30,049 nt of DNA from an uncultured Anaerolineaceae bacterium (GCA_964408835.1 CAYPAZ010000001.1:1-30049); one strand, 5' to 3'; numbered from the stretch's first letter, positions 19,119 through 28,385 are shown. Numbers and translations are program-made. Notes: generated from the letters alone by a model not told the origin.

Positions 19119-19146
19119 TTGCCCGCCTTGAGGCCCGTGCTATAGT
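19119..19146 (+). promoter_or_regulatory. Putative sigma70 promoter of the nuo operon (TTGCCC-N16-TATAGT, extended -10 TG)
   Basis: TTGCCC at 19119-19124, TG at 19138-39 and TATAGT at 19141-19146, about 40 nt upstream of nuoA. Confidence 0.65.
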
Positions 19147-19187
19147 GCGCCCGGACTTTAAGACAGATTTCACAAGCGGGCGGCGGC

Positions 19188-19562
19188 GTGCTCAGCGAAT
19201 ACGGCCACCTCGGAATCATCGTCATCCTGGCCATCATCTTTCCCCTCGGGGCGGTGGTGACTTCGTGGGCGCTCAAGTTCGTCGGGATCCGGCCGGATGT
19301 GGCCTCCGACCCCGTGAAGGATGACACCTACGAGTGCGGTATCCGCACCGAGGGACCGAGCGTCCCGCAGTTCAACTTCCGCTTCTACTACGTCGCTCTG
19401 CTGTTCGTGCTGTTCGATGTTGAGTTGGTGTTCCTGTTCCCGTGGGGAGTGGTCCTGGCGGATGTCGGCACGGAGGGGTACCTGCTCGGGATGACATTCA
19501 TCGGGATCCTGTTCCTCGGGCTCCTCTACGAGTGGCGAAAGCGGGCGCTCGAATGGCGGTAG
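19188..19562 (+). CDS. nuoA: NADH-quinone oxidoreductase subunit A, 124 aa
   Basis: Three hydrophobic segments, loop [29 protein letters not shown] and [10 protein letters not shown]. Confidence 0.95.
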
Positions 19563-20089
19563 CCGGCACGCACACCTGGACCGGCGACGAAGCCAGGGCC
19601 GCTGCCGAGCGGCTGGTCCCCGGCTCCGTCGCCCGGAGCACCGGGGTGGCGGCCTACATCAAGCCCGAGGCCTGGGTTGAGACGCTACGCGCCCTGCGAG
19701 ACGACGCGGAGACGAACTTCGTGTTTCTCACCAACCTCTGCGGAGTGGACTGGTGGGATCACCTCGAGGTCGTCTGTCATCTGCAATCCCTCAACAAGAA
19801 CCAGGCGTGCTGCGTGAAGCTGGAAGTCCCTGACCGGGAGAACCCGAGCGCGCCGAGCCTTGTCGATGTCTGGCACGGGGCATGGATGCAGGAGTGTGAG
19901 GCCTACGACATGTTCGGCATCGTGTTCGAAGGCCATCCGAACCTCCACCGCATCCTGCTCTGGGAGGGGTTCCCCGGCTGGCCGCTGCGGAAGGACTTTC
20001 TCTCGCTCCCCGGCGGGTTGCAACCCGGCCTGAGTGAATTCGCCGGGACCTCCCCACGCAACGAGCCTCCCGTGAGAGTGGTGGAATGA
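19553..20089 (+). CDS. nuoC: NADH-quinone oxidoreductase subunit C, 178 aa
   Basis: ATG at 19553 lies inside the nuoA end. [46 protein letters not shown]. Confidence 0.92.
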
Positions 20090-21195
20090 CCAGCCCGCTG
20101 CAGACCGAGCCCTTCGTCATCAACATCGGGCCGCAGCATCCTTCGACCCACGGTGTCTTCCGGATCCGCGCCACCGTGGACGGCGAGCGCGTCGTCGACG
20201 CGGAGATGATCATGGGCTACCTCCACCGCTCGATGGAGAAGCTGGCCGAGGAACGCACGTACACCCAGAACATCCCCTTCACCGACAGGACGGACTACCT
20301 TTCGAGCATGTCCAACAACCTGGGGTACTGCCTGGCGGTTGAGAAGCTCGCCGGCATCGAAGTCCCCGCCCGCGGGAGCGCCATCCGCGTAATCATGGCC
20401 GAACTCCAGCGCATGGCCAGCCACTGCATGGCCATCGGCGCGTTCACCAACGACACCGGCGCCTGGCAGACCCCGGTGATGTGGGGCTTCCGTGACCGCG
20501 AGAAGATCCTGGACCTCTTCGAGATGACCTGCGGCGCCCGGCTGACGTGCAACTACATGCGCATCGGTGGCGTGGCGTTCGACCTCCCGAAGGAGTTCGA
20601 ACCGGCATGCCGACAGGTCCTCCGCGACTTTCCCCGGCTCGTGGACGATCTCACCGACCTCCTGCTCGGCAACGAGATCTTCCTTGTGCGTTCGAAGAAC
20701 GTGGCGGTGATACCGCCCGAGATGGCGATCAACGCCAGCCTCAGCGGGCCGATGCTGCGAGGCAGTGGTGTGGCCTGGGACATCCGCAAAGCGGACCCTT
20801 ACTGCGGGTACGAACAGTACGATTTCGACATCCCGCTCGGTCACCAGGGCGATGCGTTCGACCGGTTCATCGTTCGGCTCGAGGAAGTCCGCCAGAGCTG
20901 CCGGATCGTCGAGCAGGCGCTGGATGCGTTGCCGGGTGGCCCCCACTCCACGCAGATCCCGCTGGCGCTCAGGCCGCCGGAGGGTGAGGCATACGCGCGG
21001 GTGGAATCGCCGCGCGGGGAGCTCGGCTACTACGTGGTGAGCGATGAGGGCCCCTCGCCCTATCGCTTCCACATCCGGCCCCCGTCGTTCATCAACCTCA
21101 GCGTCCTGAAGGAGATGACCGTTGGCGGTACGGTGGCCGATGCCATTGTGGCGCTCGGCTCGGTCGATATCGTCGTCGGGGAGATCGACCGCTGA
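20086..21195 (+). CDS. nuoD: NADH-quinone oxidoreductase subunit D, 369 aa
   Basis: [60 protein letters not shown] and the terminal DIVVGEIDR. No Ni-binding CxxC motifs. Confidence 0.96.
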
Positions 21196-22457
21196 TGGCC
21201 CTCCCCGCGCTCGTCTCCGACAACTGGTACGACATTCGTGACCTGGGCAATCTCTCGCGGGAGATCCTGGAGTTCGTCGACAGGATGCTTGGCAGCGAAG
21301 CGGCCTACATCGTCTCGCCGATCATCGGGTTCGTGGCCGGGTTCCTCATCTTCATCCTGCCTTCCCAGCTCATCGTCGGGGTGTATGGCGAACGGAAACT
21401 CATCGGCCGCATCCAGTCGCGCTTCGGCCCCAATCGGGTGGGCCCGTTCGGGCTGCTCCAGCCAATCGCCGATGCAATCAAGCTGATCCAGAAGGAGGCA
21501 CTCACGCCAAGGAGCGCCGACAAGGTCGTGATGTACATCGCGCCTATCGTGTTCGTCGCGCCTGCGGTGATGCTGATCGCGGTCATCCCCTTCGGGCCGA
21601 ACATGATCATCGCCGACATCCCGAACTCGCTGCTCTACGTGGTCGCAGTGACCTCGCTCCCGGTCCTGGCAGCGTTCATGGCGGGCTGGAGCCACAACAA
21701 CAAGTACTCGTTGTTTGGGTCTATGCGCATCGTGGCGATGTCGATTAGCTACGAGATCCCGCTCGTCATTGCCTTGCTCTCGGTGGCCCTCATGACCGGC
21801 AGCCTGAACCTGAACGAGATGGTGATCTGGCAGCGGGAGGCCGGGATCATGTTGGCCTGGCTGCTGCCGATCTCGTTCATCGTGTTCTTCATTAGCGCCA
21901 GCGCCGAACTCAACCGGACGCCTGCCGACATCGCCGAGGCCGAGTCGGAGATCGTTGCCGGGTACCTGACCGAGTACTCGGGTATGAAGTGGGGGCTGTT
22001 CTACGGCATGGACATCGGCTACGCCCTCGGCGCCGCTGCGATCGGCTCTACGGTCTTCCTCGGCGGCTACTGGTTGTTCGGGCTGGAGAAGTGGGTCCCC
22101 GGCTGGCTCATCCTGATTACGAAGGCCCAGGTGTTCTATCTGGTGTTCATCTGGACGCGCGGCACGCTCCCAAGGCTCCGGATCGACCAGTTGATGTCGT
22201 TCGCGTGGAAATACATGCTGCCGATCGCGCTCTTCAATCTCGTGATCGTCGCAACCCAGAAGACCATCTGGGCCCAGAATCCTGACTGGAACGAACACGT
22301 GGTCGTGTACGCCTTCGCCGCGATCAACATTGCAGCGGCGGTGGCCCTGATCGTCGGATGGGCGCGGCTGATGGGCTACCGGCCCGAGAAGCAGTTGGTC
22401 CGGCCAGTCATGGTGAACGAAGCCACTGGATACACCCCTTCCGGAGGGGGCCAGTAA
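21195..22457 (+). CDS. nuoH: NADH-quinone oxidoreductase subunit H (extended), 420 aa
   Basis: ERKLIGRIQSRFGPNRVGPFGLLQPIADAIKL..KE, KYSLFGSMR...ISYE, AELNRTPAD..EAESE, EYSG, RGTLPRLRIDQL. Confidence 0.95.
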   Translation: MALPALVSDNWYDIRDLGNLSREILEFVDRMLGSEAAYIVSPIIGFVAGFLIFILPSQLIVGVYGERKLIGRIQSRFGPNRVGPFGLLQPIADAIKLIQKEALTPRSADKVVMYIAPIVFVAPAVMLIAVIPFGPNMIIADIPNSLLYVVAVTSLPVLAAFMAGWSHNNKYSLFGSMRIVAMSISYEIPLVIALLSVALMTGSLNLNEMVIWQREAGIMLAWLLPISFIVFFISASAELNRTPADIAEAESEIVAGYLTEYSGMKWGLFYGMDIGYALGAAAIGSTVFLGGYWLFGLEKWVPGWLILITKAQVFYLVFIWTRGTLPRLRIDQLMSFAWKYMLPIALFNLVIVATQKTIWAQNPDWNEHVVVYAFAAINIAAAVALIVGWARLMGYRPEKQLVRPVMVNEATGYTPSGGGQ

Positions 22458-22981
22458 TGGAGGGCGCGGGCGTGACCATCGGGTTCTGGACGCTGAGCGT
22501 CGTGACACTCGGCTCCGCGGGCGGCGTGCTGGTCGCTCGCAACCTGCTCCACGCCATCCTGTTCCTTATCGTGTCGTTCATCGGCGTCGCAGGGTTCTTC
22601 CTCATGCTCTCGGCCGAGTTCCTGGCGATGGTCCAGGTGCTCATTTACGTCGGGGCGATCACCGTGCTCATCCTCTTCGCTATCTTCCTCACGCCCCTCG
22701 CGGGGCGAGATAACGCCGAAACGAAGATGCTCGCTCCCGCGGCGATGCTCGCGGTAGCGCTGGCTGCCGTGTTCATCTTCGTGATCTGGGAGACCGACTG
22801 GTCCGTCGTGGCGGCTGACCCGGGAGCGGAGGCCCTTGGCACCGGTGAGCTGGGCCGGGCGCTCTTGAGCACATGGGCCCTTCCGTTCGAGCTCGCAGCG
22901 GTGCTCCTGACCGCGGCACTCATCGGGGCGGTGATGCTTGCCCGCTCCAACGAGGAAGAGCAGGAGGACCTGGGAGAGTGA
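22457..22981 (+). CDS. nuoJ: NADH-quinone oxidoreductase subunit J, 174 aa
   Basis: TAATG overlap with nuoH. RNLLHAILFL, AEFLAMVQVLIYVGAITVL and PFELAAVLL. Confidence 0.94.
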   Translation: MEGAGVTIGFWTLSVVTLGSAGGVLVARNLLHAILFLIVSFIGVAGFFLMLSAEFLAMVQVLIYVGAITVLILFAIFLTPLAGRDNAETKMLAPAAMLAVALAAVFIFVIWETDWSVVAADPGAEALGTGELGRALLSTWALPFELAAVLLTAALIGAVMLARSNEEEQEDLGE

Positions 22982-23292
22982 CGCTCGATCTGGAACACTT
23001 CCTGACCGTCGGGGCGCTGCTGTTTGCCGCGGGTCTGCTCGTCGCTCTGAGCAAGCGCAACATCATCGGCGTCCTGATGGGCATCGAACTCATGCTCAAT
23101 GCAGTGAACCTGACGCTAGTCGCGTTCGCGCGCTTCAGCGAGTCGGCGCAGCCGGTCACGGGGCACGTGTTCGTCCTGTTTGTCCTTACCGTCGCGGCTT
23201 CCGAAGCCGCAGTAGCCCTGGCGCTCGCCATGGCGGTCTACCGCAACCGGCAGACCGTCGATGTCGACTCGCTCAACCTGCTGAGGTCGTAG
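22978..23292 (+). CDS. nuoK: NADH-quinone oxidoreductase subunit K, 104 aa
   Basis: GTGA overlap with nuoJ. KRNIIGVLMGIELMLNAVNL and VAASEAAVALA. Confidence 0.95.
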   Translation: MTLDLEHFLTVGALLFAAGLLVALSKRNIIGVLMGIELMLNAVNLTLVAFARFSESAQPVTGHVFVLFVLTVAASEAAVALALAMAVYRNRQTVDVDSLNLLRS

Positions 23293-23295
23293 CTC

Positions 23296-23493
23296 ATGTG
23301 GGTTGAGTTCATGACCGTGAAGAACGCTTACGTCGCGGAGCTCTGGAGGGAGCTGTTCGCGGCGGAGGGCCTTGCCATCCGCGTGGTCCCACCTGTCGGC
23401 TATGGCGAGAAGGCTTCGATGCGCGACGAGCGCACGCTCTACGTCCCCAGCGGCAAAGCTCACGTGGCCCGCGAAATCCTGAGGAAGATCTAG
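23296..23493 (+). CDS. Small hypothetical protein, DUF2007/PII-like pattern, 65 aa
   Basis: Fills the nuoK-nuoL gap exactly, with 3-nt spacers on both sides. The pattern AELWRELFAAEGL...V...LYVP....A.EIL resembles DUF2007. Confidence 0.75.
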   Translation: MWVEFMTVKNAYVAELWRELFAAEGLAIRVVPPVGYGEKASMRDERTLYVPSGKAHVAREILRKI

Positions 23494-23496
23494 CCC

Positions 23497-25455
23497 ATGC
23501 CTCTCTTCCTCGCCGAGAACGTCCGCGAAGTGCCATCGACCGACGAGTGGCTGATCTGGGCGATCATCGTTGCGCCGCTCGCGGCCTGGGGGGTGATCGC
23601 GGCCTCTGGGCGCAAGTTCCCGGTGGTTGCCGGTTGGCTGGCCATCCTCGGAGTTGGCGCCTCCCTGGCGCTGAGCACGATCGTCCTGTTCGATGTCCTC
23701 GACGCGGATGGCGGGGTGGCCCAGTACACCCATGAGTGGTTCACGGCCGGGTCGCTGACCGTGAATCTCGGCGTGCGCATCGACGGCCTCACGGCCGCGA
23801 TGTTGATGGTGGTCACGAGTGTCTCGTTCCTGGTGCAGGTCTACTCCACGGGTTACATGAAGGGCGACCCGGGGTACGGGCGCTACTTCGCCCACATGTG
23901 CCTGTTCACCGCGTCGATGCTCGGCCTGGTCCTCGCGGACAACCTCTTCATGATGTTCATCTTCTGGGAGCTAGTGGGCCTCTGCAGCTATCTGCTCATC
24001 GGCTTCTGGTTCCACAAGCCCAGCGCGGCCGCCGCGGCGAAGAAGGCCTTCATCATCACCCGCATCGGCGACCTCGGGTTCCTGGCCGCTGTGCTCCTGA
24101 TCTGGACCCGGACCGGCACCTTCGACATCGCAGAGATCCACGAAATCGCGATCGCGGGAGCGGTCTCCGGCTGGGTCATCACATGGTTCGCGCTCGGGGT
24201 GTTCGCGGGGGCTGCGGGCAAGAGCGCTCAGTTCCCACTCCATGTCTGGCTCCCGGACGCCATGGAGGGCCCAACGCCCGTTTCGGCGCTCATCCACGCG
24301 GCGACCATGGTGGCGGCCGGGGTGTACCTGGTGGCGCGGTTCTTCCCCGTGTTCGAAGCGTCCAGCGAGGCGGCCACAACCGTAGCGTGGATAGGTGCGG
24401 GTACGGCACTTATCGCCGCGACCATCGCCCTCGTGCAGACCGACTTCAAACGCGTCCTGGCCTACTCAACGGTGAGCCAGCTGGGCTACATGATGCTCGC
24501 ACTTGGTGTGTTCGGGTATGTGGCGGCGATCTTCCACCTCTTCACGCACGCGTTCTTCAAGGCCCTGCTTTTCCTCGGCAGCGGCTCCGTGAACCACGCC
24601 ACGAACACCTTCGACATGCGCCAGATGGGCGGGCTCCGGAAGTACATGCCGATTACGTTCTGGACGTTCGTGATCGGGTCGCTGAGTCTCTCGGGCATCT
24701 TCCCGCTCGCCGGCTTCTGGTCCAAGGACGAGATCCTGCTCGATGCCTGGCGCGACAACCGCGTGCTCTGGGGGGTGGCGGCATTTGTGGCGTTCCTGAC
24801 ACCGTTCTACATGTTCCGCGCGATATTCCTGACCTTCTTTGGCGAGTACAAGGGCGGGCAGCCGGTAGACCACCACGACGAGGACTCGCACTTCCACGGC
24901 GACCCTGCCCACCCACACGAGTCGCCGTGGACCATGGCCGGGCCGCTGGTGGTGCTCGCCGTCGCGGCGGTGGTGGCTGGTCTGTTCAACGCGCCAAACA
25001 TCGGCGACTTCGGGCACTTCATCGAGGGCGCGCTGCCGGAGGTGCACGAGCACGCCAGCACCTTCGAGTGGGAAATCGCGCTCAGTTCGACCGCGCTGGC
25101 CCTGACCGGGATTGGGCTGGCCTACGTTGTCTACATAAAGGAGTGGGTGACGGCGCGGTCCATCCGGCTGACGTTCGCGCCATTCGCCACGGTCTTCGAG
25201 AAGAAATACTACCTCGACGCGCTCTACGAAGACCTCTTCGCGAGGCGCATCTTCCAGCGTGGCTGGAACCGCCTGTTCGAACTGGTGGACACGCACGTGG
25301 TGGATGGCGCCGTCAACGGCTCGGCAAGGCTGACGGGGTGGAGCAGCAGCCAGCTCAGGGCCGTCCAGAACGGCCAGGCACAGGCGTACGGGTTCGGGCT
25401 TGTGGCGGGCGCAATCATCGTGGTCGCGGCGATCGTCGTCGCGAACCCGTTATAG
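23497..25455 (+). CDS. nuoL: NADH-quinone oxidoreductase subunit L, 652 aa
   Basis: YSTGYM, FWELVGLCSYLLIGFW, RIGD, GKSAQFPLHVWLPDAMEGPTPVSALIHAATMV, HAFFKALLF, FWSKD and PHESP, plus a C-terminal transverse-helix region. Confidence 0.97.
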   Translation: MPLFLAENVREVPSTDEWLIWAIIVAPLAAWGVIAASGRKFPVVAGWLAILGVGASLALSTIVLFDVLDADGGVAQYTHEWFTAGSLTVNLGVRIDGLTAAMLMVVTSVSFLVQVYSTGYMKGDPGYGRYFAHMCLFTASMLGLVLADNLFMMFIFWELVGLCSYLLIGFWFHKPSAAAAAKKAFIITRIGDLGFLAAVLLIWTRTGTFDIAEIHEIAIAGAVSGWVITWFALGVFAGAAGKSAQFPLHVWLPDAMEGPTPVSALIHAATMVAAGVYLVARFFPVFEASSEAATTVAWIGAGTALIAATIALVQTDFKRVLAYSTVSQLGYMMLALGVFGYVAAIFHLFTHAFFKALLFLGSGSVNHATNTFDMRQMGGLRKYMPITFWTFVIGSLSLSGIFPLAGFWSKDEILLDAWRDNRVLWGVAAFVAFLTPFYMFRAIFLTFFGEYKGGQPVDHHDEDSHFHGDPAHPHESPWTMAGPLVVLAVAAVVAGLFNAPNIGDFGHFIEGALPEVHEHASTFEWEIALSSTALALTGIGLAYVVYIKEWVTARSIRLTFAPFATVFEKKYYLDALYEDLFARRIFQRGWNRLFELVDTHVVDGAVNGSARLTGWSSSQLRAVQNGQAQAYGFGLVAGAIIVVAAIVVANPL

Positions 25456-25464
25456 GGGGCCGCG

Positions 25465-26925
25465 GTGGAACTGACATTCCTCGTGTTCTTACCCCTTGCC
25501 ACGGCGGTGGTTGTGCTGCTCGTGCCACGACGGCACGAGCAGAACGCGAAGTGGGTCGCGTTGGCGGGCGCCCTCGCCACTCTTGGTCTATCGCTGGTGC
25601 TGTGGGCCCGGTTCGACAACGACGCTAGCGGCTTCCAGTTCGTCGAACGCCACGAGTGGGTCGATGCCGGTTCGTTCAACCTCCAGTACTTCCTCGGGGT
25701 CGATGGGCTGAGTCTTCCGCTGGTGGTCCTCACCACGGTCCTGACAGTGGCCTCCGTCCTCGTGTCGTTCTCGATTACCAGGCGCCCCCGGCTCTACTAC
25801 GCCAACCTCCTCGTGCTCTCGACCTCGGTGCTGGGTGTTTTCATATCGCTCGACTTCCTGCTCTTCTTCCTGTTCTGGGAGCTGGAACTCATCCCGATGT
25901 TCCTCCTCATCAGCATCTGGGGCTCCGGGCGGAACGTGTATTCAGCGACCAAGTTCGTGCTGTACACCATCGCCGGCTCGGCGTTCATGCTCGTCGCCAT
26001 CCTCGTCCTGGCGTTCGAAGCGGGCACGTTCGACCTGGAGGTCCTGGGCCAGAGCGACCTGACGACGGCCATCATCCCGCTCGGCTGGGTGTTCTTCCTC
26101 CTGCTCATCGGGTTCCTCGTGAAGCTCCCCGCTGTGCCCGTGCACACCTGGCTCCCCGATGCGCACACTGACGCACCGACGGCCGTTTCGGTGATGCTGG
26201 CGGGCGTCCTTCTGAAGATGGGCGGGTACGGGATCATCCGCATGTGCGTGACGATCCTCCCGGACCAGGCCGATGACTACTCGACCTGGTTGGCCGGGCT
26301 TGCGGCGGTGAGCGTGCTTTACGGCGCGTTCGTCACGTTCCGCCAGACCGATGTGAAACGGCTGATTGCGTACTCGTCGGTTTCGCACATGGGCATCGTG
26401 CTGCTTGGTATCGCGGCCCTTGGCGAAACCGGGCTCGCGGGTGCGAGCTACCAGATGCTGGCCCACGGGCTCATCACCGGCTTGATGTTCGTGATGATCG
26501 GCTTGATGTACGAGCGGACGCATACCCGGGAGATCGCAAAACTCGGCGGGCTCGCCCGGCAGATGCCGATCATCGCGACGGGGATGGTGTTCGCCGGCTT
26601 TGCGAGCCTTGGGCTGCCTGCCCTTGCCGGGTTCATCGCCGAGATAACCGTCTTCCTTGGGGCCTTCCAGAAGTACGAGTGGGCCACGCTGATGGCGATT
26701 TTCGGCGTTGTGCTTTCGGCCGGATACATCCTCTGGCTGCTGGAGCGGACCATGTTCGGTCCGGTGAAGCACGAGTGGGATGGCCTCGAAGACCAGAGGC
26801 ACTGGTGGGAGCATTCGGCGGTACTCGGCCTGGTTGGTCTGATCGTACTCCTCGGCGTCTACCCCGCCCTGATCATGGACAAGCTGGGGCCGGCAATTGA
26901 GCCGATCATCGCGAGGGTTGGGTGA
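25465..26925 (+). CDS. nuoM: NADH-quinone oxidoreductase subunit M, 486 aa
   Basis: GVDGLS, FFLFWELELIPM, KLPAVPVHTWLPDAH, LLKMGGYG, AYSSVSHMG, HGL and GFIAE. Confidence 0.96.
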   Translation: MELTFLVFLPLATAVVVLLVPRRHEQNAKWVALAGALATLGLSLVLWARFDNDASGFQFVERHEWVDAGSFNLQYFLGVDGLSLPLVVLTTVLTVASVLVSFSITRRPRLYYANLLVLSTSVLGVFISLDFLLFFLFWELELIPMFLLISIWGSGRNVYSATKFVLYTIAGSAFMLVAILVLAFEAGTFDLEVLGQSDLTTAIIPLGWVFFLLLIGFLVKLPAVPVHTWLPDAHTDAPTAVSVMLAGVLLKMGGYGIIRMCVTILPDQADDYSTWLAGLAAVSVLYGAFVTFRQTDVKRLIAYSSVSHMGIVLLGIAALGETGLAGASYQMLAHGLITGLMFVMIGLMYERTHTREIAKLGGLARQMPIIATGMVFAGFASLGLPALAGFIAEITVFLGAFQKYEWATLMAIFGVVLSAGYILWLLERTMFGPVKHEWDGLEDQRHWWEHSAVLGLVGLIVLLGVYPALIMDKLGPAIEPIIARVG

Positions 26926-28385
26926 TGCTCGACAACCTCGATTTCATTGGCCCCCAGCTTTCGGTCCTGGTTGGCGCCGGCCTGATCATCGGGTTCGATT
27001 CCGTGTTTCCGCGCCAGAGGCGGGTGATCCCGTTCCTGGCATTGCTCGCGCTCGCGTTCTCGATCGCCTACACGACCTCCTGGGTCTCCCGCGACGACTA
27101 CCAGGCCGGCTTCCACGACACTCTCGTGCTGGACCAGTACGCGGTGTTCTTCTTCTATCTCTTCGCCGGGATAACGGCGACGGTTGTGCTCGCGTCCATC
27201 GACTGGGTCCGACGCGATGGGCGCAGTGAGTCGGAGTACTACGCGCTTGTCCTGGTGACCTGCGCGGGCCTCATGTTCCTGGCGAGCTCCCGCGACCTCA
27301 TCACCATCTTCATCGCGCTTGAGATGTCGTCGATCCCGCAGTACGTCCTCGCAGGGTGGGGGAAGGATTCGAAATCAAGCGAGGCGGGGGTGAAGTACCT
27401 CCTGCTGGGAGCGATAGCGTCGTCGCTGCTCCTTTACGGCATGGCGCTGCTCTACGGCGCCACGGGCACCACCCTGCTCAGCGGAATCTCAGAGTACGTG
27501 TCCACCGAGGGCGAAGAGAACCGGGCGCTCCTCCTGCTGGCGACCACGCTCATCATCGCGGGATTCGGGTTCAAGATGGCTGTCGTCCCGTTCCAGATGT
27601 GGGTGCCGGACGTGTACCAGGGGGCGCCGACACCAGTGGCGGCGTTCCTTTCGGTCGGTTCGAAGGCGGCTGCTTTCGCGGTCGTGATCCGCATCTTCTT
27701 CGAGGCACTTGACGCCGAGTTCCTGAGCGACGACTGGTCGATGGTCTTCGCCATCCTGGCGGCCGTGAGCATGACCCTCGGAAACGTCATGGCCGTCGTA
27801 CAGACCGACATCAAACGGATGCTGGGGTACTCTTCGGTCGCCCAGGCAGGGACCATCCTTATCGGTGTTGCGGCGATTTCCGCCTCGGGCGAGGAATTCA
27901 CGCTCGGCGCTGGTGCTGTGCTGTTCTTCGCCGGAACATACGCGTTCACGAACCTCGGGGCGTTCATCGCCGTGATCGCCATCTCGCAGAAGATCGGCAG
28001 CGACCGGATCGCTGACTACGCGGGCATGTGGAAGCGGGCGCCGGTGCTCACGGTTGTGCTCACGCTGTGCCTCGTCTCGCTCACAGGCATTCCGCCCACC
28101 GCGGGGTTCTTCGCGAAGCTGTACATCTTCCACGCGGGTATTCGCGCCGACCTCTGGTGGCTGGTCATCATCGGTGTGGTGAACACCATCGTGTCCGGCT
28201 TCTACTATCTCGGGGTCGTCCGGCAGATGTTCGCCAGCCCGGCCCAAAGCGATGAGCCCGTCCCGGCCACAGTGCCGATCATGATCGCGCTCGGTGTGGC
28301 GACGGCCGGCGTCATCGCGTTTGGGATCTTCCCTTCGCCGTTGATGGAAGCCGCTCGCGAAGCCGCGTCCGTCTTCGCCCGGTAG
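26925..28385 (+). CDS. nuoN: NADH-quinone oxidoreductase subunit N, ~486 aa
   Basis: ATG 26925 (or GTG 26922) overlaps the nuoM stop. FIALEMSS, EAGVKY, GFKMAVVPFQMWVPDVYQGAP, SKAAAF, KRMLGYSS and GIPPTAGFFAK. Confidence 0.96.
   Translation: MLDNLDFIGPQLSVLVGAGLIIGFDSVFPRQRRVIPFLALLALAFSIAYTTSWVSRDDYQAGFHDTLVLDQYAVFFFYLFAGITATVVLASIDWVRRDGRSESEYYALVLVTCAGLMFLASSRDLITIFIALEMSSIPQYVLAGWGKDSKSSEAGVKYLLLGAIASSLLLYGMALLYGATGTTLLSGISEYVSTEGEENRALLLLATTLIIAGFGFKMAVVPFQMWVPDVYQGAPTPVAAFLSVGSKAAAFAVVIRIFFEALDAEFLSDDWSMVFAILAAVSMTLGNVMAVVQTDIKRMLGYSSVAQAGTILIGVAAISASGEEFTLGAGAVLFFAGTYAFTNLGAFIAVIAISQKIGSDRIADYAGMWKRAPVLTVVLTLCLVSLTGIPPTAGFFAKLYIFHAGIRADLWWLVIIGVVNTIVSGFYYLGVVRQMFASPAQSDEPVPATVPIMIALGVATAGVIAFGIFPSPLMEAAREAASVFAR

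Follow-up and report, generated by a model that had tools for sequence, protein, structure and literature searches.

We analyzed a stretch of 30,049 nucleotides (nt) of DNA from an uncultured Anaerolineaceae bacterium (GCA_964408835.1, CAYPAZ010000001.1:1-30049), hereafter the window, and focused on an operon for respiratory complex I at 19188-28385. This interval held ten tightly coupled open reading frames (ORFs) in the order nuoA-C-D-H-J-K-X-L-M-N, nine of which were assigned by Pfam to complex I families (Table 1). All seven membrane subunits of the enzyme (A, H, J, K, L, M and N) were found in the window, together with NuoC and NuoD, the scaffold of the Q-module (PF00329, PF00346). The genes nuoB and nuoI, which encode iron-sulfur (Fe-S) subunits, were missing: a Pfam search of the operon found neither PF01058 nor a NuoI-type gene, nuoC sits straight after nuoA in the usual slot of nuoB, and nuoJ straight after nuoH in the usual slot of nuoI. 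The end of nuoA and the start of nuoC share 10 nt (19553-19562), nuoC and nuoD share 4 nt (ATGA), and D/H and H/J share 1 nt each (TGATG and TAATG); the junctions J/K, K/X, X/L, L/M and M/N measured -4, +3, +3, +9 and -4 nt. There is no space for a concealed gene at either the A/C or the H/J junction. The CxxC motif occurred in none of the ten operon proteins (0/10), and NuoH, NuoJ, NuoK and X contained zero cysteines.

Table 1. Features of the nuo operon and the lone nuoB gene; positions refer to the window unless a contig is named (aa, amino acids).
Feature	Position	Strand	Description
Promoter-like site	19119-19146	+	TTGCCC-16-TATAGT with TG extension; consensus scan; ~40 nt upstream of nuoA
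nuoA	19188-19562	+	124 aa, GTG start; PF00507, E 1.7e-29
nuoC	19553-20089	+	178 aa, ATG at 19553; PF00329, E 5e-40; TIGR01961, 122 bits
nuoD	20086-21195	+	369 aa, quinone-site subunit; PF00346, E 2e-95
nuoH	21195-22457	+	420 aa, both ends extended, cysteine-free; PF00146, E 2e-102
nuoJ	22457-22981	+	174 aa; PF00499, E 3e-33
nuoK	22978-23292	+	104 aa; PF00420, E 8e-27
ORF X	23296-23493	+	65 aa, soluble, DUF2007-like; between nuoK and nuoL
nuoL	23497-25455	+	652 aa; PF00361, E 1e-86, plus PF00662
nuoM	25465-26925	+	486 aa; PF00361, E 3e-77
nuoN	26922-28385	+	487 aa; PF00361, E 3e-76
Lone nuoB	contig C174:2054-2716		PF01058; NuoB subfamily model, 234 bits

The window NuoD aligned over its full length with Thermus Nqo4 (E 1e-110), and its residues H22, Y71 and D123 aligned with Nqo4 His38, Tyr87 and Asp139, all three being kept. 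Both membrane glutamates were kept in NuoK, and the WELVG and GKSAQFPLHVWLPDAMEGP motifs were present in NuoL. An earlier note on this DNA, made from the sequence alone, had described a ten-gene order free of nuoB and nuoI, the four overlaps from A/C to H/J, an intact quinone-site His and Tyr in NuoD and kept pumping residues. Our Pfam calls and rereading of the junctions agreed with it on the first two points, the Nqo4 alignment on the third and, as far as NuoK and NuoL go, the glutamates and motifs on the fourth.

Related loci belonged to the Tepidiformaceae (Tepidiformales, Dehalococcoidia, Chloroflexota). We fetched 80 of them with NuoD (80-85% identity) together with 10 kb flanks, among them the closed chromosomes of a cultured strain, Tepidiforma flava YIM 72310, and of many metagenome-assembled genomes (MAGs). 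The order A-C-D-H-J-K-X-L-M-N was found in all 80, as far as each contig extends, and no homologue of NuoB, NuoI or NuoG was found in the 10 kb flanks. Across the family NuoD identity was 77-85%, and NuoH orthologues that were 63-71% identical occurred in 16 of the 18 other Tepidiformaceae genomes searched. The source MAG is fragmented (2.43 Mb, 349 contigs, 75% complete, 3.5% contamination), as might be expected if nuoB and nuoI had been lost through misassembly, or if the second nuo set described below were contamination. We consider the likelihood of such an artefact next to nil. The same tight-junction layout in 80/80 independent assemblies, closed chromosomes included, means that it is due neither to chance nor to misassembly at the A/C and H/J junctions, and contamination is ruled out by the recurrence of both nuo sets in nearly all relatives, again including closed genomes.

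The same gene order was also found, by genome search, in 15 other Tepidiformaceae genera and in three other Dehalococcoidia families, and 13 of 20 further families in a wider sample had the layout without nuoB and nuoI (hereafter B/I-less). This layout is fixed in at least 15 sampled Dehalococcoidia families. Fourteen other families (seven of the further 20 and seven sampled earlier, two on partial evidence) carried the order A-B-C-D-H-I-J-K-X-L-M-N. The genes nuoB and nuoI were either both present or both missing, and no locus was found in which just one of them was gone. In a tree of NuoD and NuoH that was rooted on the second nuo set and included 31 B/I-less operons, 29 of the 31 formed one clade (SH-aLRT 99), and the remaining two fell among B/I-containing operons on weakly supported branches. 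A tree that forced all 31 together was not rejected and was slightly better (p-AU 0.51); one removal event is compatible with these data. A single ancient removal of nuoB and nuoI is therefore the simplest reading, with up to three events possible. The spread over at least 15 families, the tree compatible with one event and the synteny conserved in 80/80 loci, a check that the earlier note had proposed, all agree with its view that the layout reflects an old rearrangement rather than recent decay. As a separate observation, genome G124 (family f53, locus L218) carries a NuoI homologue about 1.2 kb upstream of nuoA of its B/I-less operon, on the same strand, perhaps an intermediate stage in the displacement of the gene or a site that it took up secondarily.

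A profile search of the contigs of the source MAG found two PF01058 genes outside the window. One of these was a lone nuoB on contig C174 (Table 1). Its product matched NDUFS7 in the PDB at E 1e-58 and Thermus Nqo6 at about E 1e-57, and the CC..C..C ligands of cluster N2 were intact, with all four cysteines present. A second, non-operon PF01058 copy was likewise found in most Tepidiformaceae genomes, and the C174 protein was 84-89% identical to the lone NuoBs of those checked. The MAG also carries a second nuo operon, an ordinary 11-gene set without nuoEFG that consists of A-B-C-D-H-I (C199:2-4523, minus strand) and then J-K-L-M-N (C84:2940-8679, minus strand), with subunits 37-52% identical to those of the window set. 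The C174 NuoB was 59-64% identical to the NuoBs encoded inside X-type operons of other families, as compared with 50% for the second-operon NuoB. In a NuoB tree, used unrooted because a divergent NuoB-like root gave a branch of 9.6 substitutions, the second-operon copies formed a separate long-branched clade (100/99), and the lone copies, also a clade (99/94), fell among those of X-type operons.

Structure prediction of window NuoD and NuoC with the C174 NuoB gave an ipSAE of 0.86, as compared with 0.00 for the best control; 51 of 78 solved complexes and 2 of 108 mismatched pairs attain that score. The co-modelling proposed in the earlier note therefore gave a positive result, although the prediction may echo memorised solved structures of complex I and does not tell paralogues apart.

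An ORF of about 65 aa with four cysteines (CxxC ... CxxxxC, zinc-ribbon-like; core CRKCDDGDLVPFSDFGSQGAPIHFKAWVCTNPDCGYNIKIRNGDLFIDEPINDG) lies just before the lone nuoB, at C174:1783-1983 on the plus strand. It precedes the lone nuoB in 10 of the 10 Tepidiformaceae loci examined (C174 included), and was not found in two loci of other families (G024, G019). A Pfam search gave no match for it, even at E up to 5; its product may assist NuoB as an accessory protein or in assembly.

A lone nuoI of about 157 codons was present in most Tepidiformaceae genomes, in addition to the nuoI of the second operon. The protein had two complete CxxCxxCxxxCP motifs and matched Thermus Nqo9 at E 4e-17, and in a NuoI tree the lone and X-operon copies grouped together (100/100) apart from the second set. 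Each of five closed Tepidiformaceae chromosomes contained exactly two NuoB and two NuoI, of which one NuoB and one NuoI belonged to the second operon and the others stood alone. In all five the lone nuoB and lone nuoI were far from the second operon and from one another, and in T. flava they were also far from the main operon. The NuoI of the second operon was very long, reaching 537 aa in T. flava (L208:10357-11970, minus strand) and lying within open frames of 436-790 aa in relatives; just the first ~120 residues correspond to a two-cluster ferredoxin, and the C-terminal extension of ~400 aa had no Pfam domain.

The lone nuoI was followed downstream by a nuoG-like gene in all 12 relatives examined, directly adjacent in each save G019, where one ORF lies between. 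The gene encodes 817-1079 aa with the domains Fer2_4, NADH-G_4Fe-4S_3, Fer4_Nqo3, Molybdop_Fe4S4, Molybdopterin and Molydop_binding, and its molybdopterin score was weak, as in NuoG. It was a single ORF of 816-1079 aa in nine loci, split or shortened in G008 (L102) and G001 (L110), and spread across three or four frames in T. flava (L210:6556-8999; NZ_CP115149.1, ~342.5-345 kb). Related arrangements were found outside the Tepidiformaceae. The single-contig genome G024 has nuoB, nuoI and nuoG in direct succession; three closed genomes of family f22 have nuoB next to nuoI and carry nuoG 0-10 kb downstream; and family f38 resembles the Tepidiformaceae in having a lone nuoB and a nuoI-nuoG pair.

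These displaced genes bear on the proposal that the operon encodes a non-redox ion translocator, Mrp-like and devoid of Fe-S clusters, that has given up electron transfer, for which the lack of any cysteine motif in the ten operon proteins would speak. We consider this proposal highly improbable. The quinone-site His, Tyr and Asp are kept in a NuoD that is well conserved across the family, NuoB and NuoI orthologues that have kept every cluster ligand are encoded in trans, and the predicted interface of NuoB with NuoD and NuoC is confident. A cofactor-less Mrp/Ehr-like module, in which the quinone site or the cluster ligands are lost, was ruled out by the intact NuoD site and NuoB ligands.

It is also conceivable that the window complex draws its NuoB and NuoI from the second operon (C199 and C84), a single Fe-S pair serving both membrane arms, and that the lone NuoB, NuoI and NuoG work elsewhere. 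A full A-B-C-D-H-I plus J-K-L-M-N set is indeed available in the MAG and in nearly every relative, and structure prediction is blind to the choice of paralogue. Yet the second-set subunits are distant from those of the window at the identities given above, the lone NuoB and NuoI more closely resemble their counterparts inside X-type operons, they are kept in most Tepidiformaceae genomes (including 5/5 complete chromosomes checked), and they have no other obvious partner. Such borrowing is not needed to explain the enzyme, and is very unlikely in our view.

Genes for the electron-input subunits were sought in the rest of the MAG. A nuoE-nuoF pair was found at C25:6590-8964 (PF01257; PF01512 and PF10589), its NuoF scoring 413 bits with nuoF_fam, below the cut-off of 559. 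The FrhB/FpoF-type domain PF04432 had no match in the MAG or in four relatives, closed genomes included, and control genomes matched as expected. We accordingly rejected F420H2 as the input, and the complex does not belong with the F420H2 dehydrogenases (Fpo), which have an FpoF/FrhB-type input subunit. A further NuoF-like gene belongs to an NAD-dependent formate-dehydrogenase-like cluster at C92:46-4335, which encodes a NuoF-like protein (418 aa), a 2Fe-2S/4Fe-4S protein (208 aa) and a molybdopterin subunit (698 aa; PF00384, 240 bits).

The displaced B-I-G genes might instead form a separately regulated or exchangeable redox cartridge, with a donor other than NADH or with docking on either arm. 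Several features would suit such a cartridge: all cofactor-bearing genes lie outside the scaffold operon, B-I-G form a cluster of their own in two families, the three loci have differing upstream sequences, and the NuoG-like protein is atypical. The empty search for an FpoF/FrhB alternative input gene and the presence of NuoE-F speak against it, and we regard it as very unlikely. The same findings, together with the nuoI-nuoG linkage, run counter to the interchangeable F420H2 or ferredoxin input module suggested in the earlier note. Its suggestion that the Fe-S wire is encoded at a separate locus was correct, given the lone nuoB on C174 and the lone nuoI beside a nuoG-like gene in relatives. 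The note had added that an ordinary nuoB and nuoI with nuoEFG elsewhere would reduce the case to a split operon, and this is essentially what we found.

We concluded, with a probability of about 0.85, that the window operon belongs to a dispersed-gene, ordinary redox-active complex I whose cofactor-bearing subunits are encoded at other loci. The layout is unusual and the enzyme is ordinary; it is not an enzyme without an electron wire. In its favour are the intact quinone site and cluster ligands, the orthology of the displaced genes to in-operon ones of other families, the strictness with which they have been retained, and the structure prediction with the C174 NuoB. The link of the displaced nuoI to a nuoG-like gene points to an enzyme of the 14-subunit type, probably an NADH-type enzyme. 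The window complex does not fit the 11-subunit type that lacks NuoEFG, the operon having neither B nor I and the displaced nuoI adjoining a nuoG-like gene.

On this conclusion, nuoB and nuoI would have been excised together, in a Dehalococcoidia ancestor, from an A-B-C-D-H-I-J-K-X-L-M-N operon whose junctions were then resealed. In some families the excised genes would have stayed side by side, in a nuoB-nuoI(-nuoG) cluster; in the Tepidiformaceae they would survive as a lone nuoB, with the small four-Cys ORF ahead of it, and as a nuoI-nuoG pair, and nuoE-nuoF would occupy yet another locus. The window would supply the membrane arm (A, H, J, K, L, M and N), the cofactor-free C and D, and X, and the trans-encoded NuoB, NuoI, NuoG and NuoE/F would dock on this scaffold to give a 14-subunit-type complex I plus X. 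NADH, the presumed donor, would pass its electrons through NuoF, NuoE, NuoG, NuoI (N6a/b) and NuoB (N2) to quinone at the His/Tyr site of NuoD, and quinone reduction would drive the L/M/N/K pumps.

Several points weigh against this conclusion. We infer from sequence comparison that the products of the lone nuoB and of the nuoI-nuoG pair join the window arm rather than the second arm, and NuoE-F are provisionally assigned to the window complex solely from their presence in the genome. The NuoG-like protein scored 212 bits against the NCBI NuoG cut-off of 470, NuoG being its best model nonetheless, and the split nuoG-like genes may be dispensable or decaying in some lineages, or may reflect long-read indel or assembly errors. 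The best free NuoD and NuoH tree requires three state changes, not one. Lastly, tblastn with the relatives' proteins did not find the nuoI-nuoG pair in the source assembly, matching just the second-operon NuoI and the formate-dehydrogenase-like cluster on C92. The genome-wide search for NuoB and NuoI that the earlier note had proposed thus yielded the nuoB in the MAG itself, and the X-type nuoI in relatives only. Because the assembly is 75% complete, we read the missing pair as an assembly gap and not as an absence.

Upstream of nuoA, the promoter-like site (Table 1) would serve as the operon's promoter, judging by its sequence. Two blocks, TGCTATAGT and, downstream of it in the leader, GACAGATTTCACAA, were kept in 12 of 13 Tepidiformaceae members, aligned by eye. 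The leader at 19147-19187, from the -10 box to the nuoA start, holds the block GGGACAGATTTCACAA(A/G)CGGCG, which was also kept in 12 of 13 family members (loci L042-L056). The promoters of the lone nuoI genes have GTGTTTGTnnTCACAAT in common, overlapping the -35 region. When the sequences ahead of nuoA, the nuoB unit and nuoI were searched for a shared regulatory motif, no convincing operator emerged, each set having its own conserved blocks; the sole element that the nuoA leader shares with the promoter region of nuoI was the short TCACAA.

The window ORF X had no Pfam match, even at E up to 5, and its orthologue in the distant relative G030 scored 25.3 bits with PF09413 (DUF2007) against a cut-off of 25.7. 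Across the class, X was found at the same nuoK-nuoL position in B/I-less and B/I-containing operons, being undetected in one (G021), and X is therefore older than the removal of B and I. At the other end of the operon, ybeY (PF02130; 28392-28859, same strand) starts 7 nt past the nuoN stop and is followed by dnaX; ybeY may be co-transcribed with the nuo operon.

In Thermus, all complex I genes lie in one nqo operon. Homologues of all 14 core subunits of the Thermus thermophilus enzyme (Nqo1-14; PDB 4HEA, 2FUG) were found in the source MAG and its relatives taken together, the lone NuoI and the NuoG-like protein in relatives only. Unlike in Thermus, the genes are on at least four loci, every cofactor-bearing subunit is encoded outside the main operon, and an extra DUF2007-like gene of 65 codons lies between nuoK and nuoL. 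Cyanobacterial and chloroplast NDH-1 is encoded by separate transcription units, ndhC-K-J, ndhA-I-G-E and ndhH. It is likewise a complex I homologue with dispersed genes, and offers a precedent for a split layout with a working enzyme; the window NuoD and NuoK matched NDH-1 chains strongly. In NDH-1, however, ndhK (NuoB) and ndhI (NuoI) stand beside membrane-subunit genes and NuoEFG is lacking, whereas here just the Fe-S genes are displaced, and homologues of NuoE, NuoF and, in relatives, NuoG exist.

Closer relatives offer further comparisons. Chloroflexus aurantiacus has two complex I gene sets, in the second and loosely arranged one of which nuoE and nuoF are far off and nuoG is uncertain (PMC3150298); unlike the window operon, this cluster keeps nuoB and nuoI in place (Caur_1986, Caur_1983; PMC3150298). 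Separate nuoEFG operons have been reported in Chloroflexi (PMC5736913), and 11-subunit complex I-like enzymes without NuoEFG (A-B-C-D-H-I-J-K-L-M-N) occur in many Dehalococcoidia (PMC3144371, PMC5736913). The second set of the MAG is such an operon, and the ancestral window operon would have had the same order plus X; the present window operon differs in having neither B nor I, and in that the displaced nuoI is tied to a nuoG-like gene. Three things set this case apart: a coupled operon gave up its two Fe-S genes, and no others, together; these genes came to lie with nuoG; and the resulting layout was fixed beside an ordinary 11-gene operon. A literature search of partial coverage, which did not take in the Tepidiforma species descriptions, found no account of a layout with B and I removed together. 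The novelty lies in the gene organisation of a known enzyme and not in a new mechanism, and the workings of complex I are not overturned.

For the Tepidiformaceae and many other Dehalococcoidia, the layout means that operon-based annotation sees a complex I without a wire or picks the wrong NuoB/NuoI paralogue, the probable true partners lying hundreds of kilobases from the operon. It is unlikely that keeping B, I, G, E and F outside the scaffold-and-pump operon is itself functional, with a nuoB-nuoI-nuoG wire that is independently regulated or exchangeable, docking on either arm or responding to iron or oxygen; if true, Tepidiforma, a cultivable aerobe, would possess a genuinely modular complex I. 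In cultured Tepidiforma strains the pairing of each NuoB and NuoI with its arm, and the roles of X and the four-Cys ORF, are directly testable. For the evolution of the enzyme, the operon would offer a clean, datable case in which two Fe-S genes were lifted together from a translationally coupled operon, mirroring the modular origin of complex I.

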